Assembly (NCBI GenBank): GCA_903831815.1
Contig: CAIKZC010000010.1
Span: 162,474 to 226,473 of the forward strand
Length of the DNA stretch: 64,000 bases
Direction: 5' to 3'
Source: an uncultured bacterium
Lineage (GTDB): Bacteria > Patescibacteriota > Minisyncoccia > Phycocordibacterales > UBA11359
Part shown: positions 3,454-33,200 of the stretch, piece after piece
How the letters are laid out: each line of letters opens with the position of its first letter
Numbering within the stretch: the first letter of the stretch is position 1
Program-made: the position numbers and the translations under genes
The notes under the pieces: generated by a model
Databases searched by the model: none
What the model was told of the DNA's origin: nothing
What the model saw: only the letters and a program-made list of their open reading frames with translations

Positions 3454-3527
3454 TGGACGATACTGGATTCGAACCAGTGGCCTTACGAATGTGAATCGTA
3501 TGCTCTAACCAACTGAGCTAATCGTCC
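3454..3527 (-). tRNA. tRNA-Val (anticodon CAC), no encoded CCA
   Basis: The reverse complement folds as a cloverleaf: GGACGAU acceptor stem, D-arm GCUC-AGUUGGUUA-GAGC, anticodon loop UUCACAU, T-loop UUCGAAU, and 3' strand AUCGUCC + A. Confidence 0.85.
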
Positions 3528-3626: not shown

Positions 3627-3699
3627 GGGCCGGTAGCTCACCTGGTAGAGCACCTCATTTGCACTGAGGGGGTAGGGGGTTCGAGTCCTCTCCGGTCCA
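3627..3699 (+). tRNA. tRNA-Ala (anticodon UGC)
   Basis: GGGCCGG acceptor stem, D-arm GCUC-ACCUGGUA-GAGC, anticodon loop UUUGCAC, T-arm GGGGG-UUCGAGU-CCUCU, and 3' strand CCGGUCC + A. Confidence 0.85.
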
Positions 3700-10897: not shown

Positions 10898-12949
10898 ATG
10901 AGAAAATTTAACAAAAAATTTGCGGTTATTGTCGCTGTCATGTTCGTGTTGTGTTTTGTCGGTATAAAATATTCGCAAGCCGACGAGGCCGACGTATCTA
11001 ATGATAATGCTGTTACGTCTAAACCGGAAATCATAGAATCAGGTTATTCTATAAAAGGAAATTATGAAGTTATCGGTCTAACTGCCAATGTTTACGGTGT
11101 AGCTAGCGCTATTCCATATACCGGTAAAAGTGATGCTCAACATATCGCCATTGATTGGACTGGTGCATGTGATGCTTCGAGTGCTACGGAATTCCCATTT
11201 ACTTTGATAACATTTGTTGGGGGAACAGGTAGTGGTAACAATAATGGGACTTTTACTGACGCTACGTGGAGCGTTCTGCACACTTTTCCGGACGCAGGAA
11301 CCTATCCTATTTGCGTAAAAGTTTATCACGCAAATTTTAACGGCAATGATGGAGAAGCTACATTAACGCTTAATTTAGTTATTCCTTCCTTGCCTTTGCC
11401 ACCCGAAAACTCTGCACCGACTGCTTCGGACATCGATCTTGTCACCAATGAAAATACGGCAACTACCACGACTCTTATTGCGTTAGATGCAGATGTTACT
11501 GATATTCTTACGTATTCTATTGTTGACGGCCCAGGTCATGGTACTCTTTCGTCTATCGATCCTTCGACCCACGAAGTGACATATACTCCAACTTTAGGCT
11601 GGAACGGTTCGGATTCATTCACCTACAAAGCCAATGATTCCAAACTAGATAGCAATACGGCAACAGTAAATATTACCGTAAATCCAATTGGTGATCCTGC
11701 CCCTTGTACTCTGACCGTTTCGGAATTTCACGACGCTCATTCTCTTTGGAATGTCGGATTGTTCGGAATCGGAATCAATCAAGATAAAACCTTGGCTTAT
11801 GTTAAAGTTGTAAACAAAACACATTGTTCCGCTCAGGTTAGTCTTGGAGCATACAAAATGTTTGATCTTACAAATCTTTCCACTCAGAAATTGTTTGATA
11901 CGACACATTTGGTCACTATCCAGCCACAATCTTCTCAAATGTTAACGGTCAAATTGCCTTCATGTGCCGCACAGATCGATGCCTTTTATGGCGATGCACC
12001 ATCATCGTTAGTGGATTCAGTTGGGACATATGATTATCCGAATATACCTTATATTGTAAAACATAAACTTTCAGAAGAGACGCTTTGCCAGAATGTTCCT
12101 CAAAATACTCCACCGGTCATCACTCTAAAAGGTGATAATCCGATGACTATTTATTATGGCACTCCTTTTGTTGATCCTGGCGTGACTGCTTGGGATGCAG
12201 AAGACGGCGATCTTACCAACGTGATAGTTATGAATACAGTCGATACTTCATCGATTGGCACTTTCAGACTTGGGACTTCAACTATTTACTATTTAGTTCA
12301 AGATTCAGGCGGATTGTTTGCCTCGACCACACGAACGGTCTATATAGTCGAAAGCACTTCAACTCCTACTACAACCCCGGTCATTGATCCTTCAACCGGT
12401 GGACGAAGCAGCGGAAGTTATGGCTTCAGACCATTGGCGTTGGCGACATCGACTCCTTCACTTTCTTGCCCTCTAATTAATTCATATTTACGTTTGGGAG
12501 CTAATAATGATCCGTCGGAAGTCATGAAGCTTCAGTCTTTCTTGAAACAAACCGAAAGTGCCGAAGTTGATGTAAACGGAATTTTCGACCAGAAAACTTT
12601 GGCTGCGGTAAATGCTTTCCAGACAAAATATCTGACTGAAATAATGGGTCCATGGGGAGCAACTCGTTCTTCAGGCAATGTTTATATCATGACCAAAAAG
12701 AAAATCAATCAGATCGCTTGCGATACCGCTTTTATGATTGATCCGATTGAACAAGCAATAATTGACGCTTATAAAGCCTCTCAAAATCAGGTTTCTCCGG
12801 GATTTATCGTTCCCGGCAGTTCACCGGCGTCATCAACAAGCCTTGATATCGGTCTTAACAATGCCACTTCCGATCAAAATCTTGCAGCCGTAGGTAGTGC
12901 ATCTTCGGTACTAGGAAAACTTTGGGGTTTTATAAAAAGTCTTTTCTAA
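10898..12949 (+). CDS. Secreted cell-surface protein with cadherin-like/Ig-like (DUF5011-type) domains and a C-terminal putative peptidoglycan-binding domain
   Basis: Signal peptide; cadherin-like block (TASDIDLVTNENTATT...TYSIVDGPGHGTLS...SFTYKANDS); PPVITLKGDNPMTIYYGTPFVDPGVTAWDAEDGDL resembles bacterial Ig (DUF5011); the C-terminus resembles the PG_binding_1 domain. Confidence 0.7.
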   Translation: MRKFNKKFAVIVAVMFVLCFVGIKYSQADEADVSNDNAVTSKPEIIESGYSIKGNYEVIGLTANVYGVASAIPYTGKSDAQHIAIDWTGACDASSATEFPFTLITFVGGTGSGNNNGTFTDATWSVLHTFPDAGTYPICVKVYHANFNGNDGEATLTLNLVIPSLPLPPENSAPTASDIDLVTNENTATTTTLIALDADVTDILTYSIVDGPGHGTLSSIDPSTHEVTYTPTLGWNGSDSFTYKANDSKLDSNTATVNITVNPIGDPAPCTLTVSEFHDAHSLWNVGLFGIGINQDKTLAYVKVVNKTHCSAQVSLGAYKMFDLTNLSTQKLFDTTHLVTIQPQSSQMLTVKLPSCAAQIDAFYGDAPSSLVDSVGTYDYPNIPYIVKHKLSEETLCQNVPQNTPPVITLKGDNPMTIYYGTPFVDPGVTAWDAEDGDLTNVIVMNTVDTSSIGTFRLGTSTIYYLVQDSGGLFASTTRTVYIVESTSTPTTTPVIDPSTGGRSSGSYGFRPLALATSTPSLSCPLINSYLRLGANNDPSEVMKLQSFLKQTESAEVDVNGIFDQKTLAAVNAFQTKYLTEIMGPWGATRSSGNVYIMTKKKINQIACDTAFMIDPIEQAIIDAYKASQNQVSPGFIVPGSSPASSTSLDIGLNNATSDQNLAAVGSASSVLGKLWGFIKSLF

Positions 12950-12984: not shown

Positions 12985-14019
12985 ATGAAAAATTCTCAAA
13001 GAAATTTTTTCATTGGCCTATCAATCGCTGTTTTGTTGTTGCTCGGTCGCTCACTCTATGTGCATTTCACTTTTAAAAGTGTCACGCCAATATCGCCAAC
13101 GATTTCTACTACCACTCCCATTCAAAATACTGTTTCGAGCACGACCCCCGTATCGAAACCTAAACCGGTTTCAGTCTCGGCACCATATCCTACGCCAACT
13201 TCAACTCCAAACACCTCTATACTTAAATGGGGGGCGTATGTTGGTGACGGGAACAACAATCTTGCCAGTTTAGAAAGTATGGTTGGCGCGAAAGCCAACA
13301 TTCAAGCCGATTTTGAAGGTTGGGATACACCTTTTCCTGCTTATTTTGCATCTACTGTCGGTCAGCGAGGTAAGACTCTGGTTGTATATTGGGAACCAAA
13401 TTTTGGTTACGATAAGATCAATGACGGTTCCCAGAATAATTACATCAAGCAATTTGCTGTCGGTGCCAAAGAATATGGATATCCGGTAATGCTTGCTCCA
13501 TTCGATGAATTCAATTTGAATGAAAGCGCTTGGGGTTATGGTATTAATGGAAATACTCCTACAAAGTTTCTGAATGCTTGGAAACGTGTTCATGATATTT
13601 TTGCAAAAGTTGGGGCGAATAATGTAAAATTCGTCTTAACTTACAACAATGTTTCGGTGCCAAATACCCCTGACAACAAATTTTCGGCATATTACCCGGG
13701 TTCCAAATATGTTGATTATGTCGGCGTCGACGGATTTAACTTTGGTAACCCATGGACCTCGTTTGCCCAAACTTTTGATTCTGCAATTGCGACTCTTAAC
13801 ACATTTAATAAGCCGATTTACATCATGTCGGTTGGTACTGTTCCTGGGACTCAAAAACCGGCCTGGATCAATGAAATGGGTACTCATATCAAGACCTATT
13901 CTAAAGTGGTAGGCTGGGTCTGGTTTAACTCAAATAATCAAGACAACGGTGCCAGTTTTGTAATATATTCGGATACACCTTCTCTTGAGTCATTTAGGGG
14001 ATTATTAAACAAAGATTAA
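12985..14019 (+). CDS. Secreted putative glycoside hydrolase (GH26-like clan GH-A TIM-barrel), N-terminal TM/signal + Pro/Thr-rich linker
   Basis: LAPFDEFNLNESAWGYG resembles the GH26 acid/base region (FxHExNGxW) and KPIYIMSVG aligns with the nucleophile strand, but no Glu is present there. Paralog of the 14231 gene. Confidence 0.5.
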   Translation: MKNSQRNFFIGLSIAVLLLLGRSLYVHFTFKSVTPISPTISTTTPIQNTVSSTTPVSKPKPVSVSAPYPTPTSTPNTSILKWGAYVGDGNNNLASLESMVGAKANIQADFEGWDTPFPAYFASTVGQRGKTLVVYWEPNFGYDKINDGSQNNYIKQFAVGAKEYGYPVMLAPFDEFNLNESAWGYGINGNTPTKFLNAWKRVHDIFAKVGANNVKFVLTYNNVSVPNTPDNKFSAYYPGSKYVDYVGVDGFNFGNPWTSFAQTFDSAIATLNTFNKPIYIMSVGTVPGTQKPAWINEMGTHIKTYSKVVGWVWFNSNNQDNGASFVIYSDTPSLESFRGLLNKD

Positions 14020-14230: not shown

Positions 14231-15772
14231 ATGAGTATTATAAATAGCATACGCCGCAAGAGCGCTGTTTTTCTTGTAATTTTTAGTTTATTATTCACGC
14301 CACTTCTCGCTGCTCAGCAGGTATCAGCAGCAAATTGGGGCTCAAATAGGAATGGAAGCAATAGAACTTGGTCAAATTGGGGATCAGGTCATTCAATTCC
14401 AACTCCGACACCTACACCAACTCCTACTCCGACCCCAACACCCACACCAACTCCTACTCCAACGCCGACACCTACACCTACACCAACTCCAACTCCTGTT
14501 CCAACACCGACACCTATTCCAACAACTTCTGGACATGGTTCGATAAGTGGAACGGTTTATAACGATCTAAATCGAAACAGTGTAAAAGATTCAAGTGATT
14601 TAACACTTTCAGGTTGGACAATAAATCTATATAGCGGAGCCGGATGGTCAGGTTCTACTAACAAGGCGCCTATAAAGACCAACGTCTCGGATGCCAATGG
14701 ATTATATTCATTCAACAATTTAACTGATGGTACTTATAGTATCGAAGAAGTAAATCAATCAAGTCTAACTCAATTTACTAACGATTTTAACTCAATTGTA
14801 ATTACTAATGGTGCAGCTGTAACGGGTAAGGATTTCGCGAACGTTGGTAACACTACCACTGTAACTCCAACTCCAATTACTACGCCTGCACCTACTCCCA
14901 CACCAACATCAACACCAACACCGACTCCAACTCCGGTCCCTAACCCGACCCCACTCCCAATTCCAAACCCTGTTCCGGTCACCAACGCTCTACAATGGGG
15001 TGCCTACGTCGGTGACACCAGTGGTGCTCTCTCGTCTTTTGAAACTATGGTCGGAGCTAAGACTAACATTCAAGCCGACTTCGAAGGCTGGGATGCAAGT
15101 TTCCCAAGTCAATTTTCTTCAACTGTCGGTCAGCAAGGTAAAACCCTAGTTATCTATTGGGAACCAAGTTTTGGTTTTGACACCATTAACAACGGTTCAC
15201 AAGATGCTTACATTAAGTCATTTGCTGCCGGTGCCAAAGCATATGGTTACCCAGTCTTACTCGCTCCATTTGATGAATTCAACTTGAATGAGTCTGCTTG
15301 GGGTTACGGACTTAATGGCAACACCGCTGCCAAGTTCGTGATTGCATGGAAACATATTCACGATCTATTCGTCGCTGCCGGTGCCAACAACGTTAAATTC
15401 GTCTTAACTTACAACAACGTCTCTGTACCAAGTTCTAGCGACAATAGTTTTGCCGCTTACTACCCAGGTGCTTCATACGTTGACTATGTCGGTGTCGACG
15501 GATTTAACTTCGGTAACCCATGGACCTCGTTTGCCGGAACCTTTGACTCAGCAATTGCCACTTTAAACACGTTCAACAAACCGATCTACATCATGTCAGT
15601 TGGTAGCGTGCCTGGTGCTCAAAAACCGGCCTGGATCAATGAAATGGGTACTCATATCAAGACTTACGCCAATGTGGTGGGCTGGGTATGGTTTAACTCA
15701 AATAGTGACCAAAATTGGCTCGTAAATACGGATACTGCGTCGCTTACAGCCTTCCAAAGTCTAGTTAAGTAA
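14231..15772 (+). CDS. Secreted putative glycoside hydrolase paralog with additional SdrD-B/Cna-B-like (carboxypeptidase-regulatory-like) domain and (TP)n linkers
   Basis: Signal peptide; (PT)n linker; SGHGSISGTVYNDLNRNSVKDSSDLTLSGWTINLY...NGLYSFNNLTDGTYSI is a Cna-B/SdrD-B-like fold. The C-terminal 260 aa is ~75% identical to the 12985 gene product, including a 44-nt identical DNA stretch. Confidence 0.55.
   Translation: MSIINSIRRKSAVFLVIFSLLFTPLLAAQQVSAANWGSNRNGSNRTWSNWGSGHSIPTPTPTPTPTPTPTPTPTPTPTPTPTPTPTPTPVPTPTPIPTTSGHGSISGTVYNDLNRNSVKDSSDLTLSGWTINLYSGAGWSGSTNKAPIKTNVSDANGLYSFNNLTDGTYSIEEVNQSSLTQFTNDFNSIVITNGAAVTGKDFANVGNTTTVTPTPITTPAPTPTPTSTPTPTPTPVPNPTPLPIPNPVPVTNALQWGAYVGDTSGALSSFETMVGAKTNIQADFEGWDASFPSQFSSTVGQQGKTLVIYWEPSFGFDTINNGSQDAYIKSFAAGAKAYGYPVLLAPFDEFNLNESAWGYGLNGNTAAKFVIAWKHIHDLFVAAGANNVKFVLTYNNVSVPSSSDNSFAAYYPGASYVDYVGVDGFNFGNPWTSFAGTFDSAIATLNTFNKPIYIMSVGSVPGAQKPAWINEMGTHIKTYANVVGWVWFNSNSDQNWLVNTDTASLTAFQSLVK
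14398..14523 (+). repeat. Coding low-complexity (ACN-CCN)n repeat encoding a (TP)n linker
   Basis: PTPTPTPTPTPTPTPTPTPTPTPTPTPTPVPTPTPIP; not a CRISPR array (no spacers, coding frame maintained). Confidence 0.8.
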
Positions 15773-15800
15773 ATTATAAAAAGAGACAGGTGACTGTCAT

Positions 15801-15933: not shown

Positions 15934-16959
15934 ATGAAAATATCGCTTCTGGTACCATGTTACAACGAGGAAAAATCCTTGGAGGCCTCTATAAAGTCCT
16001 CTCTTCGACAAACCCGTAAATTTGACGAGATCGTATTTATCGACGATTCTTCCAAAGATCGAACTCCTGAGATCTTGGCAAAATATTCGGATCGGATAAC
16101 TGCCAGAAGAACACCTAAGAATACAGGAAATAAGAGCAGTGCTCAAGAATTCGGTCTACACTTTATTACGGGGGATGTAATGGTCACGACGGACGGTGAC
16201 ACATTGTTAGATGAGAATTTTGCCGCAGAAGTAGAAAAAAGTTTTAAAGACCCCAAGATCGTGGCTGTCGCCGGTCGAGTTAAAAGTTTGCCTTATAACT
16301 GGCTGACTCTTTGTCGAGCATTCGATTATGCCATCGGCCAAAATATTCACAAAGTCGCTCAAAGTTATTTACGATACATTTTTGTTATGCCCGGCGCGGC
16401 CAGCGCCTTTAGAGTTGACGTTTTTAAAAAGTTTATAACTTTTGATCATGACACGATCACGGAAGATCTTGATTTTACTTACAAACTTCACAAAAAATAT
16501 TTCAAAATAATATATAACAAAAATGCGATTTCTTACACTCAGGACCCGGCTGATTTAAAAAATTACATCAATCAAATGCGTCGATGGTTTGGCGGGGGAT
16601 GGCAAAATTTGATGAAACATTGGGATGTAATTTTCAGTCATCCAATCAGAGCTTTTGAATTGTCGCTTATATATTCCGAAGGATTGATATTTTCCGTGTT
16701 GATTTTTGTTTTACCGATTCTAAATTTATGGTTTGGATTATGGCTCATCGTCGGATATTTCGTAGTCGCATTGGCTTTCGGTGTTTGGGCTGCAATAGTC
16801 GAAAGACGATGGACTCTCGTTTTGGCGCCATTTCCGTATCTCGTTTTAATGTTTATAAATTCATACATTTACCTCGAACAATTTGTTAAGGAAGTAATTT
16901 TGAAGAGAAAGAATTTAGTCTGGTTCAAACCGGAGCGTGTAGAAATGATCGCACAATAA
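15934..16959 (+). CDS. Family 2 glycosyltransferase (GT-A fold, membrane-embedded C-terminus)
   Basis: LVPCYNEE, FIDDSS, TTDGD(T) DxD-like motif, QMRRWFGGGWQNL, then multiple TM helices. Confidence 0.85.
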   Translation: MKISLLVPCYNEEKSLEASIKSSLRQTRKFDEIVFIDDSSKDRTPEILAKYSDRITARRTPKNTGNKSSAQEFGLHFITGDVMVTTDGDTLLDENFAAEVEKSFKDPKIVAVAGRVKSLPYNWLTLCRAFDYAIGQNIHKVAQSYLRYIFVMPGAASAFRVDVFKKFITFDHDTITEDLDFTYKLHKKYFKIIYNKNAISYTQDPADLKNYINQMRRWFGGGWQNLMKHWDVIFSHPIRAFELSLIYSEGLIFSVLIFVLPILNLWFGLWLIVGYFVVALAFGVWAAIVERRWTLVLAPFPYLVLMFINSYIYLEQFVKEVILKRKNLVWFKPERVEMIAQ

Positions 16960-16960
16960 T

Positions 16961-17545
16961 ATGCCATTTACACCATTTATCGGATTATCGGTTTTAGTTC
17001 ACATCGGAATTATTTTGTGGCACAAGATTTTTGATGTCACCAGTAATTTCAGGGCTTTGACCGTACAAAAGGCGACACGCACTCTTCGTTTCGGAATTTC
17101 GACTATCATCGTTCTTATTTTCGCGGTTATTCTAACTTCGGCTATCGGATTGGTCCGCGCTGGAGTGAATGATAAATATTCAAATATCAATTTAGTTGAA
17201 CAGTTTGTCGGTTACGTCCAAAATTATAATTTTCATGATTCCACTAAAGTAGTTTTAGCTCAGGATGATAAAGTCATCTTAAGTAGCACTTTCGTATCGC
17301 CGCCAAAATCCGTCACATCTGCCGCTTCAAGCACCTTAGTGAATAATTGCGCAAATTCATCGGCAACTACTGTCAACTATTCCAACTCACTGGTAAATTT
17401 TTTGATCTCAAACAAACGGGACCACTCGTTTAAATCCAGAAGTTACCTAGCTTCGACGTATGGTATCAAGTCTTATAACGGTACAAGTAAACAAAATCTA
17501 TTTATACTCCAAAAGCTGATCGATATGGCTAAATGCCAAACTTAA
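16961..17545 (+). CDS. Hypothetical membrane protein
   Basis: The ORF starts 1 nt after the GT2 stop. Two predicted TM segments; no recognised domain. Confidence 0.5.
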   Translation: MPFTPFIGLSVLVHIGIILWHKIFDVTSNFRALTVQKATRTLRFGISTIIVLIFAVILTSAIGLVRAGVNDKYSNINLVEQFVGYVQNYNFHDSTKVVLAQDDKVILSSTFVSPPKSVTSAASSTLVNNCANSSATTVNYSNSLVNFLISNKRDHSFKSRSYLASTYGIKSYNGTSKQNLFILQKLIDMAKCQT

Positions 17546-17588
17546 AATTTATTAGAAACAATTATTAGCAATTTAATTAATTAAAAAA

Positions 17589-20120
17589 ATGAAAACAAAG
17601 TACAACGTATCGATTTACACAAAATTAACAATGGTTCTGGTTCTTGGTTTATTTTATATTAGTCCGACCTTGGTATTTGGAGCCACAAGTACGCCTGAAA
17701 CCAATCTGGTGCCAAATCCACAAATGTTGAACGCGACTGTTTCGAGCACAACGCCCGACAGTTGGTCACAGGGTCATTATGGAACATCGACCGCTACGTA
17801 TAATTATCCGGTACCCGGACCAAATCCGGGTGACAAAGCGGTGGAAGTTATTCTTTCAAATTATGAAAGTGGTGCCGCGGAATGGTTTTTCCAAAGTGTG
17901 CCAGTGACCGGAGGGTCTCTATATGCCTTTACGGATTCTTACAAATCCGATATTGAAAACTATGTCATAGCGCAGTGGACGATGAGCGATGGGTCGTTGG
18001 CGTATGATGCCATCACGACACTTTCACCAACGAACGGCATTTGGGCTAATACTCCGCAAGAATTGTTTCAAGCTCCCGACAATGCGGTTTCGTTGACGAT
18101 TCTTCACCTTATTCAAAATACCAACGGCACTTTGGATACGACTAATTATTCATTGACTGCATTTACACCAACAGGTCAAGGATCTTTTGCCAAAGCTATG
18201 GTTTCCCTAACATTCGACAACGGCTGGTCATCTCAGTTTAATAACGGCAGACCGATCTTGAACGCTGCACACATGCCGGTAACTTATTACATCATTACTA
18301 ACTCAACCTTGGATGCAACAGCCGGAGTATCGAATAATTTCTTTGACAGCAGTGGAATTTCTACGACTACCACAATCTCTTCTTCAACAGTCAATTGGGG
18401 TGACATTACCAATATAAATAATTTTGGGGCAGTATATACCGATCCGACTTATCAATCGTATATTTTCACCGATACCTACACTTCCTCTACAACGAGTAAT
18501 TTGTTTGTTAAATATTGTTCTGTCACTTTTACCGGAGATTGTCCTGCCGCAAGTGTGACTTCCATGGGTGTCGGAGCACTTCCTGCAGGTAATAACGCGA
18601 CGGCCAATATTTCATTTACATTGCCGACTGTATCGGGCAATACCGTCTCGCCGATAAGTATTTCCCAAGTTTCGGATCAGGGAGAATTGATTACAGCTTC
18701 AAATCCATTTCTGACGGAATCGCAAAGTTTTATGACTGAATCACAACTTCGAACTCTGCAATCGGAAGGAAACCAAATGGATTCACATACCAAAACTCAT
18801 CCGGACTTAAACTTAACAACTCTTGATGTTGCTACTTCAAATGACGAAATCGCTGGCTCGCGCTCGGCACTATTGTCTTTCGGATTGTCGCCGGTTGATG
18901 GATTTGCATATCCATTCGGAAGTTACAATACGACGGTAAAGCAAATGGTTAGCAGTGCGGGGTATACAAATGCCAGAACGGTGGATGTTGGTTTTAATAC
19001 GACTGCCAGCGATCCGTTGATGTTAAAAAGCGAAAGCGTAACGGCATTGACGACATTTGCCACGATCAAATCTTGGATTGATACGGCTATCGCAAATAAA
19101 TTATGGCTAGTCATAACTTTCCACGATGTTGATCCGCAAAATATCATCGATCAAAATAACGAAACGTATGGTGTAACGCCGACTATGCTTCAAAATATCG
19201 TTACATATCTTCAAACTCAAAGCGGTTCGATCGATGTGTTGACTATGGATCAAGCTCTATCGAGGTTGACCGGTACACAACCACCTCCTCTAGTAATACC
19301 GGCAGTAACCATCACTCCTCCAACACTTCCTAATGGAGTCGTCGGAACCCCTTATACTCAAACTTTGACTCCCTCAACGACAGCTACTGGACCATTCACT
19401 TGGACTGTCACATCAGGAGCATTACCGACAAATCTTATTCTCGGTTCAACTTCCGGAATTATCTCCGGGACACCGACAACAACCGGAACTTCGACCTTTA
19501 GTGTTAAAGTTACGAATGGTTCTGCTTCTACGACTCAATCGTTTAGCATAGGTATTAATGCAAGTTCAACTCCACTACCGCCTCCTGTCATTTCTACGAT
19601 TACAATTACTCCAACATCACTTCCTAATGGCAAAGTCGGTTCTGTATACAGTCAATTGTTGACTGCCTCGACTACCGCAACAGGACCATTCACTTGGTCG
19701 CTCTCAGCGGGAGCATTGCCACTAAATCTTTCACTTGGAACAAGCACAGGACTTATTTCCGGAACTTCAACGACAGCGGGAACATCCACATTTAGTGTTA
19801 TGGTCACAAATGGTACAGCGTCTACGACTCAAGCGTTTAGCATAGGCATTAATGCCAGTTCAACATCGTCTACGCCACCACCACCTGTCAAACCACATTC
19901 AGGAGGTACTGGTGGCGGGGGCAGGGTAGGAGGATTTGCGTTCTTGATCAATAGAATTAAGGGAGATCTGAACAATGACGGTAAAATTGATCTATTCGAC
20001 TTTAATCTGCTCATTACAAATTGGGGAAAAATAAACACAAGTATCACGGAAGCTCTAAGTGGAAGTAATGATGCCGTTGGTCTAAAGGACTTCAATACAT
20101 TAATGGTTAACTGGATCTAA
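17589..20120 (+). CDS. Secreted polysaccharide deacetylase (NodB homology domain, split) with two He_PIG-like Ig repeats and a C-terminal dockerin-like module
   Basis: Signal peptide; NodB motifs SLTFDNGWSS and NQMDSHTKTHPDL; two ~95-aa repeats (LPNGxVGxxY...GPFTWxxxxGALPxNL...GTSTFSVxVTNGxASTTQxFSIGINA); C-terminal DLNNDGKIDLFDFNLLITNWGK matches the dockerin Ca-binding repeat DxNxDGxIDxxD. Confidence 0.8.
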   Translation: MKTKYNVSIYTKLTMVLVLGLFYISPTLVFGATSTPETNLVPNPQMLNATVSSTTPDSWSQGHYGTSTATYNYPVPGPNPGDKAVEVILSNYESGAAEWFFQSVPVTGGSLYAFTDSYKSDIENYVIAQWTMSDGSLAYDAITTLSPTNGIWANTPQELFQAPDNAVSLTILHLIQNTNGTLDTTNYSLTAFTPTGQGSFAKAMVSLTFDNGWSSQFNNGRPILNAAHMPVTYYIITNSTLDATAGVSNNFFDSSGISTTTTISSSTVNWGDITNINNFGAVYTDPTYQSYIFTDTYTSSTTSNLFVKYCSVTFTGDCPAASVTSMGVGALPAGNNATANISFTLPTVSGNTVSPISISQVSDQGELITASNPFLTESQSFMTESQLRTLQSEGNQMDSHTKTHPDLNLTTLDVATSNDEIAGSRSALLSFGLSPVDGFAYPFGSYNTTVKQMVSSAGYTNARTVDVGFNTTASDPLMLKSESVTALTTFATIKSWIDTAIANKLWLVITFHDVDPQNIIDQNNETYGVTPTMLQNIVTYLQTQSGSIDVLTMDQALSRLTGTQPPPLVIPAVTITPPTLPNGVVGTPYTQTLTPSTTATGPFTWTVTSGALPTNLILGSTSGIISGTPTTTGTSTFSVKVTNGSASTTQSFSIGINASSTPLPPPVISTITITPTSLPNGKVGSVYSQLLTASTTATGPFTWSLSAGALPLNLSLGTSTGLISGTSTTAGTSTFSVMVTNGTASTTQAFSIGINASSTSSTPPPPVKPHSGGTGGGGRVGGFAFLINRIKGDLNNDGKIDLFDFNLLITNWGKINTSITEALSGSNDAVGLKDFNTLMVNWI

Positions 20121-20126
20121 AAAATT

Positions 20127-20831
20127 ATGAAAAAAATATTATTTTACATGTCGTTGTTTGCGCTCCTTATCCTTCCGGTCGTCTCAAAGGCGGCAACCGT
20201 GTCGGTATCGACATCTGGAAACTATGTAGTTGGTCATACGTATAGCATAAATGTTCTAGTCGATCCGCAACAATCGACCGTATACAGCGCCAAAGTGGTT
20301 GTAAATTTTCCGGCTGATATATTGCGGGTTAGGGGATTCTCTTTTGAAAGCGGTTGGATGCCGTTAAGTCAGACCGGTTACGATTCCATCGATAATACCA
20401 ACGGTATTTTGATCAAAACCGGTGGCCTTCCGGCCGGATTGAGTTCGTCCAAAGTGTTAGGTACTATCACTTTCTATGCAGTTAAGTCCGGGACAGGGAA
20501 TATTTCGGTTGGCAGTGAATCACAATTATTGGATGCAAATAATCTAAATAATTTCACTGCTTCAACGAATATTCCTGTGAATGTTAAAAATGCAGCGGTC
20601 GTTGTGGCGAAAAAAACGGTTGCAGTAACTCAAGCCGTGCTTGCTAATTCAACTACAGTTGCAACTTCTTCAACCATATCAACAACCTCAGCAGTTGAAA
20701 CGCCGACTATAAATTCGATTCAAAACACTGCCGCGGCCGGCAATGCCGGATCAAATTATACTTGGCCGATTGTGATCGGAGTAATCATAGTGCTAATAAT
20801 TATCGGTTTCTTTGTTGGAAGGAAACGATAA
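20127..20831 (+). CDS. Membrane-anchored cohesin-like domain protein (signal peptide + ~150-aa beta domain + C-terminal TM anchor)
   Basis: Signal peptide MKKILFYMSLFALLILPVVSKA. Beta-rich domain resembling cohesin (VSVSTSGNYVVGHTYSINVLVDP...ILIKTGGLPAG...). C-terminal TM WPIVIGVIIVLIIIGFFVGRKR. It lies immediately downstream of a dockerin-bearing gene. Confidence 0.45.
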   Translation: MKKILFYMSLFALLILPVVSKAATVSVSTSGNYVVGHTYSINVLVDPQQSTVYSAKVVVNFPADILRVRGFSFESGWMPLSQTGYDSIDNTNGILIKTGGLPAGLSSSKVLGTITFYAVKSGTGNISVGSESQLLDANNLNNFTASTNIPVNVKNAAVVVAKKTVAVTQAVLANSTTVATSSTISTTSAVETPTINSIQNTAAAGNAGSNYTWPIVIGVIIVLIIIGFFVGRKR

Positions 20832-20854
20832 TAGATAAGAAATTATTATCGATA

Positions 20855-20888
20855 AAAAATACCGACACGTTGTCGGTATTTTTTTAAT
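20855..20888 (+). terminator. Rho-independent terminator (stem AAAAATACCGACA / TGTCGGTATTTTT, T-run)
   Basis: aaaaataccgacacgttgtcggtattttttt. Confidence 0.8.
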
Positions 20889-20916
20889 TTATGTTACAAT
20901 ATATTCAACTATTTAT

Positions 20917-21834: not shown

Positions 21835-21927
21835 AAGTGACTATTTAGGCAACCTTGACTTTCCGTGTCGTTATAATACGATGTAGCAGGACCGTTCTAT
21901 GGTTTTTACAGAAAGGATGAGTGTTCT

Positions 21928-22218
21928 ATGGATAGAAAATCACAGGATAAGATGCCATCATCCAGGATCAATCAGGAAGGGCAACTTGTCATGTCTTCTC
22001 ACCAAGATATGATCAAGAGAATTCTAGAGGCTGCGCGAATTCCATTTCAGACCACCCTGGAAGTCACTTCTTCTAAAGAGGTTATTGTGGTGGACGAAGC
22101 CAACGTTAGATCGGCTCTAAAGGCTATGTTTAACAATGGTAGCGACAGCCTGATCAATTATCTTGATTACGATCTGACCCTGCTCGTTCAAGGTAAATTG
22201 TGTCGGCAACTTGTGTGA
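21928..22218 (+). CDS. Hypothetical small protein (in GC-rich cassette)
   Basis: 96-aa ORF with RBS AAAGGA and a perfect TATAAT ~45 nt upstream, followed by a hairpin (TGTGAGC...GCTCACA). Confidence 0.45.
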   Translation: MDRKSQDKMPSSRINQEGQLVMSSHQDMIKRILEAARIPFQTTLEVTSSKEVIVVDEANVRSALKAMFNNGSDSLINYLDYDLTLLVQGKLCRQLV

Positions 22219-22362: not shown

Positions 22363-22390
22363 TCTACGCTTACTTTGAGTCACAACAGTG

Positions 22391-23395
22391 TTACTTCACA
22401 ATAATCGCGGAAATCCTCTGAAGCAGTTTCTCCGAATTAGTATTGTAAGTTTTTGAACACTGTACACCCCAGGGGTGCGGCTCGAACTGTTCGACGTCCC
22501 CAAACATCATGGACAGTCTCAAGGAAGGACGACACAGGGTGGCTGGAACCTTCTTGAATCTTCTTCCAACCGGCTGACGTCTTCCAACCAAAACCAACTT
22601 TTCCGCCCCTTTCAAGACGAGGAGTTGGCTGTGTCGTGTGCCCACCCATTGATCCTTTTCAGGATTTAGACGTTCATACATCACTTCAGCCTGAGCGGTC
22701 TTGTCTGCATGGTAGGTAATGATCCCGCCTTTGTTTTGGTAAGCGATACCGCTAGCAAAAGGCATCCATTTGTCACGGTAATCCCACTGCACAGGACTGC
22801 TCCATTTCACGTCCATGTTGACCAGGAATTTGTTTTTCTTTCGATAGCAAACTCCTTCATCAATCGCGAATATTTCATCACCACACGATTCCCATTCGCC
22901 GCGTTCCGGCTCAGCTATCGTCTCAATTAGCGCGATACCTTTCTTGTCGCAAGACAACAAATGAATCCCGTCAGACGCTTCAAACAGGATTTTCCCACTA
23001 GGATGTGGAAGGCTTTTGAAAATCTTGCATGGATGTTGATAGAACAGAACACACGAATTGTCCTTACCAAGATCATAGAAGCAATCATTGAGGTGACCAA
23101 TGAGTTTCCCGTCCAACGGAAGGATTGTACCGTCAAATCGAATGGGACTGTCGGTTACCCCTTTGAACACCTCAATCTCTCGTCCTACTTCACGATCATC
23201 AGTGCTCCATATAAACCAAGAGTTGTCTATATGTATGTGCAAACCGGTTAGCAGAGATTGAGTGGTTTTTTCCACTTTCGGTCCGCAATAAAGCTCTGCA
23301 ACAGCCAGATTCGCCCCCATTTTGAAAGCCTTGGCTGTAGGAACTACTCGCTCCCCGTTTTCATCAGAAATTCTCGTTTGTTGAGTTACGGACAT
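22391..23395 (-). CDS. Hypothetical protein (GC-rich, ~50% GC)
   Basis: 334-aa ORF with strong RBS (AAGGAGGTGGTG before the ATG at 23395) and its own terminator. No recognised domain. Confidence 0.65.
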   Translation of the reverse strand: MSVTQQTRISDENGERVVPTAKAFKMGANLAVAELYCGPKVEKTTQSLLTGLHIHIDNSWFIWSTDDREVGREIEVFKGVTDSPIRFDGTILPLDGKLIGHLNDCFYDLGKDNSCVLFYQHPCKIFKSLPHPSGKILFEASDGIHLLSCDKKGIALIETIAEPERGEWESCGDEIFAIDEGVCYRKKNKFLVNMDVKWSSPVQWDYRDKWMPFASGIAYQNKGGIITYHADKTAQAEVMYERLNPEKDQWVGTRHSQLLVLKGAEKLVLVGRRQPVGRRFKKVPATLCRPSLRLSMMFGDVEQFEPHPWGVQCSKTYNTNSEKLLQRISAIIVK

Positions 23396-24062: not shown

Positions 24063-24329
24063 GTGTCATATTACGTATACATACTTGAATGTGCAGATAA
24101 AACTTTTTACATCGGTTCGACTAACAATTTGGAAAAAAGATTGGTGGTTCATAATTTTTCAAAAGCCGGCGCAAAATATACCAAGGCTCGCCGACCTGTC
24201 GTATTGAAATATTCTGAAAATTTAAAAACCAAAAGTCGAGCGCTTAAAAGAGAATATACACTTAAACAACTGACTAGAACAGAGAAAATGGCCCTAATGA
24301 AGGGCGCTATTTTAAGGGGTAAAAAATGA
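24063..24329 (+). CDS. GIY-YIG nuclease family small protein (UPF0213-like), GTG start
   Basis: YVYILECADKTFYIGSTNNLEKRLVVHN is the GIY-YIG signature; 88 aa. Confidence 0.75.
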   Translation: MSYYVYILECADKTFYIGSTNNLEKRLVVHNFSKAGAKYTKARRPVVLKYSENLKTKSRALKREYTLKQLTRTEKMALMKGAILRGKK

Positions 24330-27232: not shown

Positions 27233-30200
27233 ATGTTCGTACGTTTTTTTCATATTTCTAAACCTGTTTTAATTTCAGTTTCTCTTTTTTTAATTTGCAT
27301 TTTACCTTTGAAATCTTTGGCTGACGATAACATTGTCGTCACGGATGTTTCCACTTCAATTTCAGATACGTCATTAATTTCCGATATTGTTGAATCGGAG
27401 TCTATTTCGGATGTAGTCACTCCTACAACAATCGATACTAATCCTGCCGAAATTTCTACCTCTACTTCTACGGATACGGATACGGAAAATGATATTGCAA
27501 CTTCAACAGCGACTTCAGTAACTTCATCAGAAAATTCTTCGACGACAACTGAGGCGACTTCGACCGATAGTAATGTTGTTGTTTCAACTTCAACTCCAAA
27601 CATTTCCGAGCAATTAACCAGTACCGGAAAATTGGTGACGGTTTCGGCGACTGATGAACAGGAAGCGATCACACCGATGATTAACGTTCCGGTCCGTGTG
27701 GCAATTTCGGAAATTTTTAAAGTTGGTCAGGAAAATAAAATAAAAATTAAATGGCAAAACAATGACGGTCAGGATATGCAGTTTACGGCAATTGATGAAG
27801 ATGGAAATGGTTACATTGATCATGTTGAATGGATCGTGCCGCACCTCTCGACTCAAACTTTTGATTTGATTTATATTTCCGATGCCTTGTTGTTGGACAC
27901 AAATAAAAATCCGATCGAAGATATTTTTGATATTGTCGGAACTCAAGATCAAAATTATAAAACCATAAATGACGGACAATATGTTCGAATGACGTTTGAG
28001 ACAAAATTGAATAATACAAGATACATTTCGGTTTTTGGAAAACCTCATGACGCCAGTCAGTCAAGTTCGATTGAAGTTTATCCTGTTTACACTGATGCCC
28101 AAGGAAATACGACTGAAGGCAATCCAATTCAAACGACTTTTCAAATCGATCATGATGGTGAGTATCAAATCTATTTGACCGATCTTCAAACACCAACCGA
28201 CGTTTTTGATCTGAGAGCTGTGGGGAATATAGATATTGATTACATTGTTGACACAATAGGACCACCATTAAACGCTTTTTGGGTCGGTGGCACAGGTCGC
28301 TGGTATGCCGACGCTGCTGCTCACTGGGCAACGTCAACTAACGGTCTAACTAGTGCCGGCAACTTACCTGGTCCGAATACTAACGTGACTTTTGATTCTA
28401 ACTCAGGATCTGCATCATCCGTTGTAACAATAGATGCAACAACTTCTCCAATCAACATAACCTCGTTGACTATCAGTACTTACACCGGAACTATTACTCA
28501 AAGTGCAAGTCTTATTATATCCGGAAGTTATTCTCAAGCTTCGGCTGCCACATTTACTTCGCCCAATCCGGCCTCGAGCACACTTTCAGTCGGTGGTAAC
28601 TTTTCGGTTACGGCCGGGACATTTAGACGTTATACGGGAATGGGCATAACTACCGATCCCTTTGTAATTTATGATGTGTATGGTTTGCAGGGCATGAAAA
28701 CCGGTCTCTCCAACTCTTACAAACTTTATGGTGATATTGACGCAACTAATACCGCCTTATGGAATACTATAGGAAGTACAACGACAGGTTTCGTACCGGT
28801 TGGCACAAACACTACCAGCTTTAATGGAAATTTTGATGGTGCCGGTTACACGATCAGAAATTTGTATATCAATTCTACAACGACAAACTATGTCGGTCTT
28901 TTTGGTTATGCAACAAGTACAATTCAAAACGTAAATCTTTCAAATATTTCAATTACGGCGACAAGCACTTTTGGTACTATCGGTGGAAATGGAAATCCTG
29001 GTAATGCGAGCACAAGCCCGACTGCTGGAGGTACAGGTTCGGTTGGTGGAGTTGGAGCCAACTTATATATAGGAGGTTTGGTTGGTTTTGGTGCAGGTTT
29101 TATTTCCAATGTTAATGTATCAGGAATAATTTCAGGCTTTGGCGGAGCTGGAGGTAAAGCTGGTGATGGAGGTAAAGGAGGAAACACTACATCCGGTGCT
29201 ACGACGGCGGGTGCTGGAGGAGCTACTGTCAGTGACGCCGTTGCTATTGGGGGCACGGTTTATATTGGAGGACTAGTTGGATATTATCAGGTTGGAGATA
29301 TCACTAATGCTAACAGTACTGTGTCGGTTATTGGCATCGGTGGTGCGGGCGGAGCGGGAGGTAAAAGTGGAGATGGTGGAACCAACTTAGGAACAGGTAT
29401 TGGTGGAGCCGGAGGAGCGACTGTTGGAGTCGCCGGCGCCGGCGGAGCCATATATGCCGGAGGATTGGCAGGTTGGGTTAATGCAGGTTCGATTATTACT
29501 TCTTCGGCGACAGGTAATGTGACGGCGACGGGCGGTGTGGGTGGCACAGCGGGAGGAGCGGGAGTTGGCGGAGCGGGAGGTGGCGCGGCTATCGGTGGCA
29601 ACGGAGGAGCCGGTGGCACTGGAGGGGCTGGCGGAGCGAGCTATGCTGGTGGTCTCGTTGGATACAATTTTGGAAATATTGAAGATGGATCATTTGCTAC
29701 AGGTATTGTGCAATCTTATGGTGGCATCTCCGGTGCCGGAACAATAGGTGGCTATGGTGGTGCGAGCGCTACTTCAACTTCAGGTACGGCTGCAAGTGGC
29801 GGTAACGGAGGCACCGGTGGTGCGGGGGCTATTGCTTATGCCGGAGGCTTGGTTGGTCAAAATGCTGTCGGCGGAATTATCACCGGTTCGACAAGTCCAA
29901 TTTATGCTACAGGAACAACTACCGCTGTCGGGTCGGCCGGTAAGGATGGACAAAACGGTGGAGCTGGAGGTGACGGTTCAAAAGGTACTGCTCATACTGG
30001 GGGTCTTGGAGGTAACGGAGTTGCCGGATCTATTGGTGGTGGTGCTTATGCCGGGGGACTTGTTGGACTTAACTCAGGAATTATTATTTCTTCAAATTCA
30101 AATACCGGATTGGTTACTGTAACTGGCGGCGCTGGTGGTGCCGGCGGTACTGGTGGCTCAGGAGGTTTAAAAGGAACAAGTGGGACGAGTGGAACAGGCG

Positions 30201-33200
30201 GTACAACAGGAAACGGTGGTTCAGCCAACTCTACTTCGGCATATGGAGGAGGATTAGTTGGAAGTAACACAGGAATTATTCAAAATTCATCGGCTCAAAA
30301 TTCAGTATCTGGTCTTGGAGGTTCAGGCGGAAAAGGAGGCGATGGTGTCGCTGCATTAACAGGATTTGCCGGTGGTGTCGGTGCCACAGGTGGTGCGGGA
30401 GGTATTCTATATATAGGAGGCATAGCCGGAGGTAATACATATTTAATTAGTAGTAGTTCGTATCTTAATGGAAGTGTTTCCGGTACGGCTGGTGCGGGAG
30501 GATCTGCCGGAGTTGGTGGTGCCGGTGGAAACTGGGCAGGTGGATTGGCAGGTACAGCCGGCACGGCTACGGTCGGAGCGGCTATTTATGCCGGAGGAGC
30601 AATTGGTCGTAATGATTATTTAGTTATTTCTAATGTTTATGCAACAGGGAATGTTGCAGGTACATCCGGTGCTGGTGGTGCCGGAGCAAAAGGTGGCGAC
30701 GGCGGCACAAGTCTAAATGGTGTCGTCGGAAGTGCCGGAGCTTCCGGAGGTGTTTCATATATCGGAGGACTCATCGGATATCACAACAACGGAGAAATTC
30801 TAAATTCATGGGCGACCGGAAGTGTTATTGCTAATGTCGGAGTTGCAGGCAATGGTGGCGGTGGCGGTAATGGTGGTACTGGAGCTGCGTCAACTGTTGG
30901 TGGCATCGGTAACACAGCCGGTAACGGCGGTGCGGGTGGCAACGCTTTCGGTGGCGGTCTTGTTGGCGTGACCAACTTAGGTACAATTACAAATTCTTAC
31001 GCGACGGGAAGTACCACGGTGACCGCCGGCGCTGGTGGCGTTGGTGGACTTGGAGGCACTGGTGGCGCCGGCGGTTCAAACGCAATCGGTGGTGCCGGTG
31101 GTGCCGGAGGTGCCGGTGGCACAGGTGGAGCCGCTTATGCCGGTGGACTTGTCGGACAAAATAATGCAATCATTCAATCAAATTCATGGGCTAGTGGAAG
31201 CGCGACCTCAACCGGAGGAATTGCCGGGGATGCCGGCGCCGGCGGCGCCGGCGGAACCACCACCGCTAGTACTGTCAACTCAGGTGTTGCCGCTGCGGGA
31301 GCGTCTGGTGGAACGGGTGGTACCGGTGGAGCCGCTTATGCCGGAGGATTGGTAGGAAATAACACAAATACGATAACTGATTCATATGCTATCGGAGGAA
31401 TTATAGTAGCCATTTCAACGCCGGGTAAAAACGGTGGATTATCCGGAGTGGCGGGAAACGGTTCGGCTGGAGGGTCGAGTCATACTGGCGCGGTTGGTGC
31501 TACTGGTGCCGCTGGTGGCGGCGGTGCTCTCGCTTATGCCGGAGGATTAGTAGGACAAAATTCATCAACGATTACAAATTCGCATTCCGACCAAGGCATA
31601 GCGAAAGCTACCGGAAATGCTGCGGGTAACGGCGCTGATGGCGGAGCTGGCGGTGTTGGCGGAACGGGCGGAAACGGAGGTGTCGGTGGAGTTGGTGGTA
31701 TCGGCGGAGCTGCCGTTTCAATCTTTGCCGGGGGACTTGTTGGGTATAACGTAGCTGGAATTATTCAATCTAATTCACATTCGTCTGACGACGCTATAGT
31801 TGTTGGACAAGGTGCCGGTAATGCCGGTAACGGCGGTGCCGGCGGTACTGCGGCAGCTGGAGGAGTCGGCGGCTTTTATTCTGCCGGTGGTCCCGGCGGT
31901 GCCGGAGGTTTGGTTGGAAGCAATACAGGAATTATTGATAGTTCATACGCAACCGGGAATTCAACTTCTACGGGAGGTCTAGGTAGTTCATATGGTACAG
32001 GCGGTAATGGAGGTAGTGGATCTACTGGCGCAACCGGTGGAACATTTACGCTTACCAGTAGTCCTGCTCGAACCGGTGGTTATGCTGCTGTTGGTGGCTT
32101 AGTAGGTTTAAATAATGCAAACGGCGCTATTCAGGGTATTTGTTATGCAAATGGAAATGCTGTGGGAATTGGAGGCAATGGCGGATTTGCAAGCAGTTCA
32201 CCAAATGGTGGTAACTCAACTGGTGCAGTTGCCGGCGCTGCGGGCATTGCTGGTGGTGCTGGAGGTGCCGGAGGAGGTGCTTATGCGGGAGGATTAGTGG
32301 GATACAACTTATCTGTTATAAGTACCAGTTCTTATGCGACAGGAAATGCGTCTTCAACTGGCGGTACTGGTGGCGCCGGCGGCAACGGTGGAAATGGTGG
32401 CTATGGCGGATCAGCTGGGGTGGCTGGTGTAAATGCCGGTAACGGTGGCGCTGGCGGAACAGCTTATTCCGGAGGAATTATAGGATTGAATGGAACTATC
32501 GGATCCTCGGTCATAACTAACGAGGGTACTATTGGTAATGCAAATTCAACTGGCATTATTACTGCTTATGGCGGGACCGGAAATACCGGTGGCTCTGGCG
32601 GCAATGGTGGCAATGCTACAAGTACAGCTGCATATATTGGGGGTGGCGGAGGTACCGGAGGTACCGGTGGCGCCGGTGGCACAAGTGCAGTTGGTGGTGC
32701 TGCTGGGTATAGTGTTGGTTATGTTAAAGATATTTCATACACAGTTTTGGGTTCAAATTTAAATTCTTTGGGTGGAGCAGCAGGCAATGGTGGAGGCGGT
32801 GGTTACGCTGGAGCCAGCGGAAACATATCAGCCGGTGTTGGTGCTACTGCCGGTAACGGCGGTATTGGTGGCGCTGGCGGAAATACGTTGCTAGGTGGAC
32901 TAGTAGGATATAATGATGGATATATAATCAATTCTAATATTCATATAAATGGAAATCTTTCGGCAAGTGGCAGAATTGGAGGTAACGGTGGCACCGGAGG
33001 TAACGGTGGAGATGCAACCAACGGTGTTGGAGGACATAGTGGTGGAGTCGCAGGTACGGGAGGCACCGGAGGCGCTGGCGGTACTGTCGGTATAGGAGGA
33101 CTTGTTGGACTAGCTAATGGAATTATTACAAATTCTCATAGCGATGGAGACATGATCGTTGTTTTAGCTGGCGGTAACGGAGGAATTGGCGGTAACGGAG

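Follow-up and report, generated by a model that had tools for sequence, protein, structure and literature searches.

Predicted cohesin–dockerin anchoring of a secreted polysaccharide deacetylase by a two-gene cassette widespread in Patescibacteria

Cohesin–dockerin interactions are best known from cellulosomes, and the described systems that come closest to the one presented here are OlpA and OlpC of C. thermocellum (PDB entries 3ul4 and 4dh2) and ScaE of R. flavefaciens (PDB entry 2zf9), in which a single envelope-anchored cohesin displays a secreted protein carrying a C-terminal dockerin on the cell that makes it. Two neighbouring genes in a 64-kb stretch of a patescibacterial contig (CAIKZC010000010.1) appear to follow a similar principle. 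In what follows, this whole stretch is called the window, and coordinates are window positions on the forward strand unless stated otherwise. The first open reading frame (ORF), ORF1 (17589..20120; 843 aa), encodes a secreted, predicted carbohydrate esterase family 4 (CE4) polysaccharide deacetylase with two immunoglobulin-like (Ig-like) repeats, a Gly-rich linker and a predicted C-terminal dockerin. The second, ORF2 (20127..20831; 234 aa), encodes what is, on strong grounds, a monovalent membrane-anchored cohesin protein, i.e. an anchoring scaffoldin. Both ORFs lie exactly where an earlier sequence-only reading of the window had placed them, in a common reading frame and separated by the 6 nt that it gave. 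We consider it highly probable that the two products form a cognate dockerin–cohesin pair holding the secreted enzyme at the cell surface, because the two genes are almost universally adjacent in this family, because the cohesin gene is lost where orthologues of the enzyme carry a peptidoglycan-binding domain, and because residues of the two modules co-vary. The same reading had already proposed that a membrane cohesin tethers the upstream dockerin enzyme; these three lines of evidence support the proposal, and it is from them that we infer the binding itself.

OlpA, OlpC and ScaE differ from this locus in several respects: they are anchored by domains of the S-layer homology (SLH) type or by sortase and not by a transmembrane (TM) helix, they serve the degradation of plant cell walls, one cohesin receives many dockerin enzymes encoded elsewhere, and they belong to Firmicutes and not to the Candidate Phyla Radiation (CPR). 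Closer to ORF2 in layout are the ‘nonSLH-anchoring scaffoldins’ of Firmicutes, in which a single cohesin likewise lies between a signal peptide and a C-terminal TM helix; examples come from Lachnoclostridium sp. MSJ-17, H. luporum and C. cibarium. TM-anchored single cohesins also occur in Ruminococcus, and some of the hosts are presumably non-cellulolytic (PMC11557425; bioRxiv 10.64898/2026.02.05.704116). The partners of these scaffoldins are mostly unassigned and a conserved adjacency to a dockerin gene is not reported in either source, whereas the ORF2 family forms a lineage apart, divergent in sequence and almost confined to Patescibacteria. From 1999–2009 onwards, cohesin–dockerin modules outside cellulosomes came to be recognized in C. 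perfringens, in archaea and in numerous further organisms (Bayer et al., 1999; Peer et al., 2009; both as cited in PMC9012536). In the glycosidase and toxin complexes of C. perfringens (PDB entries 2vo8, 2w1n, 2o4e and 2jh2), the cohesins are located inside secreted enzymes and link enzyme to enzyme, not enzyme to membrane, and for the archaeal cohesins (Archaeoglobus fulgidus, PDB entry 2xdh; ANME archaea) a one-to-one cohesin–TM cassette is not described. The type of interaction, the non-cellulosomal pairs and the TM-anchored single cohesin are thus already known, and the locus refines and extends a known principle. The sequence-only reading, which had called it an unusual, cellulosome-independent use of the module, was overstated on this point, given this record since 1999–2009 and the TM-anchored single cohesins of Firmicutes.

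ORF2 has the layout of an anchoring scaffoldin, namely a signal peptide, a cohesin and an envelope anchor. The signal peptide (20127..20192; residues 1–22, with a predicted cleavage site at VSKA|A) is hydrophobic over residues 4–22 and helical over residues 2–14 in the model described below. It is followed by the cohesin domain (20193..20591; residues 23–155) and by a disordered spacer of about 55 residues rich in Ser, Thr, Ala and Val (20592..20756; residues 156–210), in which the predicted local distance difference test score (pLDDT) is below 50 over residues 168–210; these four amino acids make up 70% of residues 155–207. The protein ends with a C-terminal TM helix and a basic RKR tail before the stop codon (20757..20831; TM at about residues 211–231, model helix at 212–233, mean hydropathy of 2.84 over residues 213–231). 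The signal peptide, β domain and TM anchor are as the sequence-only reading had described them, except that the domain spans about 133 residues and not about 150. In an AlphaFold2 model computed from an alignment of homologues, the block-mean pLDDT is 88–97 over residues 31–130, and the predicted fold is indeed the nine-stranded β jelly-roll of cohesins, with Ser54 on strand β3; the OlpA, OlpC and ScaE chains are among the structural matches of this model. The comparison of structures was needed for the assignment because a profile of the ORF2 family searched against the PDB sequences found no cohesin; its only returns were weak matches to Big_2-like tail-tube domains, which involved the signal peptide and the first strand. 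At the family level, Pfam Cohesin (PF00963) matches eight of 23 ORF2 homologues of 30–50% identity (best E = 9e-8), one of the homologues being named ‘cohesin domain-containing protein’ by NCBI. Taken together, the family-level evidence and the modelled structure argue strongly that ORF2 is a cohesin protein.

The anchor is as characteristic of the family as the domain: a C-terminal TM helix is present in 116 of the 121 full-length members, and basic residues are found within the last 14 positions in 120 of them. Anchoring of ORF2 as a sortase substrate was considered and rejected, because an LPXTG motif is absent from ORF2 and a TLxTC sortase signature from the window; the NCBIfam model LPXTG_anchor scores ORF2 exactly at its cutoff (15.9 bits), a score that stems from the TM helix and the basic tail. 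It should be noted that 45 of the 121 full-length relatives (e.g. L077, L087 and L096) carry a conserved motif, ..LLAAIGxxLTLGT(G/N)(N/S)xW.., just before the TM helix, which is absent from the ORF2 of the window. Together with the TM helix and the basic tail, this motif recalls the three-part sorting signals of sortases and exosortases.

The C-terminal tail of ORF1, which follows the Gly-rich linker (GDLNNDGKIDLFDFNLLITNWGK...SNDAVGLKDFNTLMVNWI, ending with DFNTLMVNWI), contains the putative dockerin module (19962..20117; residues 792–843). Its first repeat is canonical, with an intact Ca2+ loop (D-x-N-x-D-G-x-I-D-x-x-D) followed by FNLLITNW, and its second repeat retains the helix (DFNTLMVNW); the helices are of the type that we call ‘N’ (DFN..L[IM].NW). 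In the family consensus, a first repeat DxNxDGKVDIxDFNxLMVNWG and a second repeat ADxNxDGxVDIxDFNxLMxNWT are joined by a linker of about eight residues. A lineage hidden Markov model (HMM) built from the tails of 25 relatives matches the ORF1 tail with 49.5 bits (E = 6e-14) over model positions 1–50 of 52, and it is because of this near full-length match that we predict the tail to be a dockerin and not a chance motif. The tails of 23 of the 46 upstream partners are also matched by Pfam Dockerin_1 at E ≤ 1e-4 (best E = 1e-11).

The pair of the window is one instance of a two-gene cassette, in which a gene for a dockerin cargo is followed by a gene for a cohesin–TM anchor, and this cassette is widespread in Patescibacteria. 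The ORF2 family comprises 612 clusters (50% identity) at E ≤ 1e-30 and 1409 at E ≤ 1e-10; the best 150 clusters listed are nearly all 225–275 aa long and match from end to end. In data with one genome per species, the family is found in 54 species, nearly all of which are labelled Patescibacteria/CPR (Paceibacterota, Saccharibacteria, Berkelbacteria, Jorgensenbacteria, Nomurabacteria, Kazan and others). Our survey of the cassette covers genome-derived loci and 80 metagenome loci, with upstream sequence for 131 loci. The cohesin-anchor gene comes directly after a same-strand gene ending in a two-repeat dockerin in 127 of these 131. In the 50 genome-derived pairs, the dockerin and cohesin modules are typically only 7–60 nt apart on the DNA, the dockerin ending 0–1 residues from the stop codon in 45 of them. 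Moreover, among the 4140 ORFs of the genome-derived loci, only three dockerin ORFs lie outside a direct pair, each of them beside another cassette member. The proteins that carry the dockerin are otherwise unrelated, with lengths of about 115 aa up to over 1400 aa, and include subtilases, right-handed β-helix/NosD proteins, ice-binding-like proteins and proteins with CHB_HEX_C, Fn3-associated or GLUG domains or with many Ig-like domains; a deacetylase was seen only in the window among the surveyed partner proteins. One ORF with an apparent fusion of dockerin and cohesin (L042) was discarded as artefactual: it arises where the sequence is masked or ambiguous (X in the translation). Two variants of the gene order were also seen. 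Two consecutive dockerin-ending genes precede one cohesin gene in L037, and in a locus labelled Saccharibacteria (L054, 3309..6933) a dockerin-ending gene is followed directly by one cohesin-type gene and, about 800 nt further, by a second, a layout that may be intermediate between cassettes with one and two cohesins.

The closest homologues of ORF1 provide a natural comparison of anchors. Those with 57–70% identity (P0291–P0295) and a more distant one with 45% (P0299) share its N-terminal region, its split CE4 domain and its Gly-rich linker, and most of them share its He_PIG repeats, yet they end in a PG_binding_1 domain and the dockerin is absent. Three of their loci were examined (P0291, P0293 and P0294): none of the three has a cohesin-type gene downstream, and two of them retain the upstream genes for a glycosyltransferase of family 2 (GT2) and a small membrane protein. 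Six-frame HMM searches of two of these loci found no cohesin-like or dockerin-like ORF even at E ≤ 10. Judging from these comparisons, the dockerin and the cohesin gene appear to be gained or lost together, as a unit that can be exchanged with a known cell-wall anchor. This joint loss, with PG_binding_1 taking the place of the dockerin, is the strongest functional argument for the pair being an anchoring device.

The two modules also vary together. Two types of dockerin helix can be distinguished, DFN..LM(V/I)NW (N) and DFV..LMANW (V), and the two repeats of a dockerin are almost always alike. Over a set of 97 non-redundant pairs, position 54 of the cohesin (ORF2 numbering) is Thr or Ser in 81 of the 83 pairs with an N-type dockerin and Ala or Val in all 14 pairs with a V-type dockerin, a rule to which ORF1 (N-type) and ORF2 (Ser54) conform. 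A first test on 44 pairs resembled a single clade event, and the comparison became informative once the 80 metagenome loci had been added. In an average-linkage tree of the cohesins from which column 54 was left out, no fewer than four switches of the dockerin type occur, and all V-type cohesins have an apolar residue 54. Neighbours whose cohesins are about 76% identical, with an identical β8 segment, differ in type: cohesins with NYTEK (L084 and L087) are encoded with DFN..LM(V/I)NW dockerins, and cohesins with NYVEK or NYAEK (L128 and L123) with DFV..LMANW dockerins. Residue 54 is located within the third main strand of the ORF2 model (residues 52–60). In solved cohesin–dockerin complexes, the dockerin is bound on the 8-3-6-5 sheet of the cohesin.

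In the mechanism that we propose, ORF1 and ORF2 would both be exported by the Sec pathway. ORF2 would be held in the membrane by its C-terminal TM helix, the S/T-rich spacer displaying the single cohesin outside the cell, and the C-terminal dockerin of ORF1 would bind this cohesin, probably in a Ca2+-dependent manner, with the dockerin helices lying on the 8-3-6-5 sheet, strand β3 and its residue 54 included. Anchored in this way, the CE4 deacetylase would be kept beside the site where an N-acetylglucosamine (GlcNAc)-type exopolymer emerges, a role comparable to that of the surface-retained IcaB and PgaB, and a second cassette of another specificity type would anchor a 5194-aa FN3/Gly-rich protein. 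The surface-exposed cohesin fold of ORF2 could instead bind some other target, such as a glycan of a host cell, a protein of another cell or the polymer, with the gene adjacency reflecting co-expression of envelope genes. We regard this as unlikely, since co-expression alone would explain neither why the adjacency is specific to dockerin-ending genes whatever their cargo (the 127 of 131 loci), nor why precisely those loci whose orthologous enzyme has no dockerin also lack the cohesin gene, nor why residue 54 of the cohesin tracks the helix type of the dockerin.

It is less likely again that the dockerin-like tail works as an autonomous Ca2+ element without a partner, be it a stabilizer of the EF-hand type, a wall or carbohydrate tag or a secretion signal. 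The ORF1 tail does match EF-hand weakly, dockerin-like repeats are present in many proteins for which no cohesin partner is known (PMC9012536, citing Peer et al., 2009) and an essential dockerin-domain protein of Southlakia, to which we return below, has no neighbour of the cassette type. Such an element would nevertheless leave unexplained the invariant cohesin gene downstream, the extreme C-terminal position of the tail, the co-variation and the exchange with a PG-binding domain, and half of the family tails pass Dockerin_1, which is a model of two repeats and not of a single EF-hand. One may also wonder whether the pairing takes place between cells, the anchored cohesin capturing dockerin proteins of its neighbours for aggregation or for the attachment of an epibiont to its host, and not for self-display. 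Such a pairing would suit the typically episymbiotic life of CPR bacteria, the lack of an anchor in the dockerin proteins themselves and the presence of a giant FN3/Gly-rich, adhesin-like protein among the cargo. Self-assembly on the cell that makes both partners is, however, the simplest explanation of the strict one-to-one encoding of cognate types in an operon, and we attribute the lowest probability to capture between cells, which would in any case extend the self-display model and not replace it.

Several observations weigh against the cognate ORF1–ORF2 pair and its proposed role, and they should be set beside the evidence given above. The sequence-only reading had named Pfam searches as one way to check both modules, and these searches match the two families, as described, but leave both modules of the window below threshold. 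Cohesin (PF00963) gives no match on ORF2 at E ≤ 10, even with the isolated domain, and Dockerin_1 (PF00404) reaches 17.1 bits on the whole of ORF1 and 22.0 bits on its isolated tail, compared with a cutoff of 22.9, the match to the tail covering only the first half of the model, i.e. the first repeat. The Ca2+ loop of the second repeat of ORF1 is degenerate, most of its acidic or amide ligands being gone, and affinity or binding mode may consequently depart from the family norm; a single loop is missing also in a few relatives (L019, L049 and L059). As to the candidate interface, an AlphaFold2 model of the cohesin tethered to the dockerin by the native linker, computed without an alignment, gave a pLDDT of 35 and a predicted template modelling score (pTM) of 0.22, which speaks neither for nor against an interface. 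The strand that carries residue 54 is presumably part of the 8-3-6-5 sheet, to which we assign it by strand order and not from inspected coordinates. The cohesin tree is a crude, average-linkage one, the V-type cohesins share further markers (E55 and F135), and part of the co-variation could come from shared ancestry. As for the enzyme, its first CE4 motif is TFDN (18201..18212; ORF1 residues 205–208) and not the canonical metal-binding TFDD, so that an Asn replaces the usual metal-ligand Asp. This point is softened by the alternation of the two forms among close orthologues, with TFDN in P0292, P0294 and P0300 and TFDD in P0291, P0293, P0295–P0297 and P0299. Finally, the GT2 and the CE4 domain score far below the equivalog cutoffs of the enzymes of poly-β-1,6-GlcNAc (PNAG) synthesis. 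The best NCBIfam match of the GT2, PgaC_IcaA (TIGR03937; E = 1.5e-36), has 126 bits compared with a cutoff of 422, and the CE4 domain has 23–24 bits compared with cutoffs of 250–320 for IcaB and PgaB, and 66 compared with 400 for HfsH, so that neither protein belongs to a Pga/Ica-type PNAG system at equivalog score.

The cargo of the window starts with a signal peptide (17589..17681; residues 1–31, with a predicted cleavage site at ...TLVFG|AT), which is its single hydrophobic segment, no further TM segment being found in ORF1. The catalytic domain is a split CE4 domain of the NodB type (18177..19268; approximately residues 197–560), which Pfam Polysacc_deac_1 matches in two stretches (E = 2e-18; 66.9 bits compared with a cutoff of 23.1). 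Partial NCBIfam matches to HfsH (residues 381–560) and to PgaB/IcaB (residues 197–239) fall within it. The catalytic motifs that we checked, TFDD, H-S/T-x-x-H, R-x-P-Y and L-x-H, correspond in an alignment to PDB entry 6dq3 to TFDN, HTKTH, AYPFG and TFHD. ORF1 is thus a predicted CE4/NodB deacetylase, with a Pfam match at threshold and TFDN as its first motif. The domain is split by an S/T-rich insertion of about 130 residues (ORF1 residues ∼240–373; 18300..18700) between catalytic motifs 1 and 2, which is without a family match and is kept in all close orthologues of ORF1. The two Ig-like repeats that follow the catalytic domain (19305..19838; approximately residues 573–750) are matched by Pfam He_PIG in two stretches (E = 1e-18).

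The context of a GlcNAc-type exopolymer is suggested by the best match of the GT2 to PgaC/IcaA, by the partial matches of the CE4 domain to HfsH and PgaB/IcaB and by the order of the genes. The order icaA-icaD-icaB resembles that of the GT2, the small TM protein and the CE4 enzyme. As a comparison for the cargo only, IcaB and PgaB (of icaADBC and pgaABCD) are CE4 enzymes whose systems likewise comprise a PgaC/IcaA-like GT2 and a small membrane protein, and both are retained at the envelope. They differ in how they are retained: electrostatic or hydrophobic association holds IcaB and a lipid anchor holds PgaB, whereas the enzyme of the window would be held by the proposed dockerin–cohesin contact, and its orthologues by PG_binding_1. 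Pga/Ica is the best-matching known system, yet by equivalog criteria the locus is not a member of it, and its polymer may differ. The polymer could well be PNAG-like and could just as well be another one.

A second cassette is found further along the window. The sequence-only reading had placed a giant adhesin in the same tethering system as the deacetylase; the giant protein is linked to such a system by a dockerin tail but has a cassette of its own, of a different type. This secreted protein (27233..42817; 5194 aa) has an N-terminal hydrophobic segment. Gly-rich repeats make up about 3800 aa of it; it also contains no fewer than 13 FN3 domains and a poly-Gly linker, and it ends in a dockerin (42629..42796; approximately residues 5133–5188) with two intact repeats and the helix VDFSI.L..W. 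Its tail passes Pfam Dockerin_1 with 39.6 bits (E = 6e-10; positions 3–52 of 57), and with 26.3 bits within a C-terminal piece. The next gene, 6 nt downstream, encodes a 292-aa protein (42824..43702) in which a signal peptide is followed by a probable cohesin-like domain, a DUF7743-like domain and a C-terminal TM helix (residues 268–286), and is followed by a gene for a 570-aa protein (43674..45386) with a signal peptide, a cohesin-like domain, Ig-like domains, a TM helix (residues 477–495) and a cytoplasmic tail. Compared with the ORF2 family by hhalign, the 292-aa protein gives a probability of 69% (E = 4e-5) and the 570-aa protein a probability of 96% (E = 4e-9); the latter is also matched by the ORF2-family HMM (E = 3.5e-12), its orthologues show weak or faint matches to Pfam Cohesin, and the two proteins match each other by BLASTP (E = 1e-9). 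The order of the three genes and the dockerin tail recur in three other loci (L064–L066), from a complete Falkowbacteria genome, where the cargo has 6437 aa, and from two further contigs; in one of the three loci the cargo has just 327 aa. From their sequences, the genome seems to hold two apparently orthogonal dockerin–cohesin types, each encoded with its own partner. The N-terminal part of the giant protein (about 3800 residues; 27233..38600) consists of ...AYAGGLVGxN... units between GGxGG runs and is without a Pfam match. This Gly-rich stretch accounts for the rise in G+C from about 0.40 to 0.48–0.54 and for a strong positive GC skew (0.18–0.35) between 28 and 38 kb.

We found no description of a dockerin–cohesin cassette from CPR bacteria in the searchable literature. 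Compared with the systems described at the outset, what is new here is the strict one-to-one operonic pairing and its breadth in Patescibacteria, the non-cellulolytic cargo, which includes an exopolysaccharide deacetylase and giant adhesin-like proteins, the interchangeability with a PG-binding anchor, and a candidate pair of specificity-determining residues. Little is understood of how proteins are attached to the surface of CPR/Patescibacteria, and this applies also to the very large adhesin-like proteins, the presumed mediators of their episymbiotic life. What this locus suggests, together with over 100 relatives, is a self-contained plug-and-socket module that would suit any secreted cargo and substitute for a PG-binding domain. 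Cohesin–dockerin pairing would thereby extend, in ultra-small bacteria, to the display of adhesins and the modification of exopolysaccharides. The predictions that follow concern which protein binds which, the candidate specificity residues and the two orthogonal types within one genome. More tentatively, and with somewhat more doubt than confidence, we propose that the cassette is a general, portable means of surface display in Patescibacteria, existing in several orthogonal types, interchangeable with PG anchors and displaying enzymes and giant adhesins for envelope remodelling and host attachment. If the cassette is such a means of display, a residue code, opposing residue 54 on strand β3 of the cohesin to helix position 14 in each dockerin repeat, would set the specificity of pairing, and the cassettes would offer a compact, naturally orthogonal set of protein–protein connectors of possible use in protein engineering.

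A transposon-sequencing study of Saccharibacteria lists an essential dockerin-domain protein of Southlakia, SEML1_0315, with no cohesin noted (PMC10633639). We found no support for its being a member of the cassette family: its neighbours are a tRNA gene and, on the opposite strand, a gene for an alpha/beta hydrolase (table of PMC10633639). Its N-terminal domain is assigned to ECOD e2qkiE3, the MG domain of complement C3c (supplementary tables of PMC10633639), and a Foldseek comparison of the ORF2 cohesin model gives PDB chain 2qki_E as one of its weaker matches, so that SEML1_0315 might itself carry a cohesin-like domain.

Around ORF1 and ORF2, the window contains an envelope-polysaccharide locus, in which the two GH26-like proteins and the GT2 reported by the sequence-only reading are borne out by matches to Pfam Glyco_hydro_26 and Glycos_transf_2. 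The GT2 gene (15934..16959; Glycos_transf_2, E = 1e-25) encodes a synthase-like glycosyltransferase with C-terminal TM-like segments (residues 271–312). The gene of the small membrane protein (16961..17545; 194 aa) starts 1 nt past its end; this protein has two N-terminal hydrophobic segments and no family match in Pfam or NCBIfam, and a protein of similar size occupies the same position in two orthologous loci (L062 and P0294). From the GT2 gene through this gene and ORF1 to ORF2, the intergenic gaps are 1, 43 and 6 nt, and directly 3′ of ORF2 lies an intrinsic terminator (20854..20884; a 14-bp stem followed by a T-run), the strongest terminator-like site of the 12-kb region 10500–22500. Given these short gaps and the strong terminator, the four genes look like one transcription unit, of which the GT2 gene is the first and ORF2 the last. 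Upstream of this unit are the genes of the two GH26-like secreted proteins, the first (12985..14019) with 26.0 bits to Glyco_hydro_26 for a cutoff of 20.2 and the second (14231..15772) with 26.5 bits, a Pro/Thr linker and an SdrD_B/SpaA-like domain (SdrD_B, E = 4e-10).

Still further upstream, a 683-aa secreted protein (10898..12949) has Big_9/cadherin-like and Bact_surface_Ig-like domains and, near its C-terminus, a sub-threshold match to PG_binding_1 (residues 540–578; 20.8 bits compared with a cutoff of 23). If this match is real, the locus would combine a peptidoglycan-binding domain with dockerin–cohesin anchoring. Between the two cassettes, an 88-aa ORF (24063..24329; MSYYVYILECADKTFYIGSTNNLEKRL...) resembles by eye a stand-alone GIY-YIG nuclease and sits between a cytidylyltransferase-like gene and a G6PD/6PGL pair. 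A 334-aa ORF on the reverse strand (22391..23395), of no family obvious by eye, belongs to the small number of minus-strand genes in a region that is otherwise co-directional. Two divergent tRNA genes, at 3454..3527 on the reverse strand and 3627..3699 on the forward strand, are the only Rfam matches in the window.

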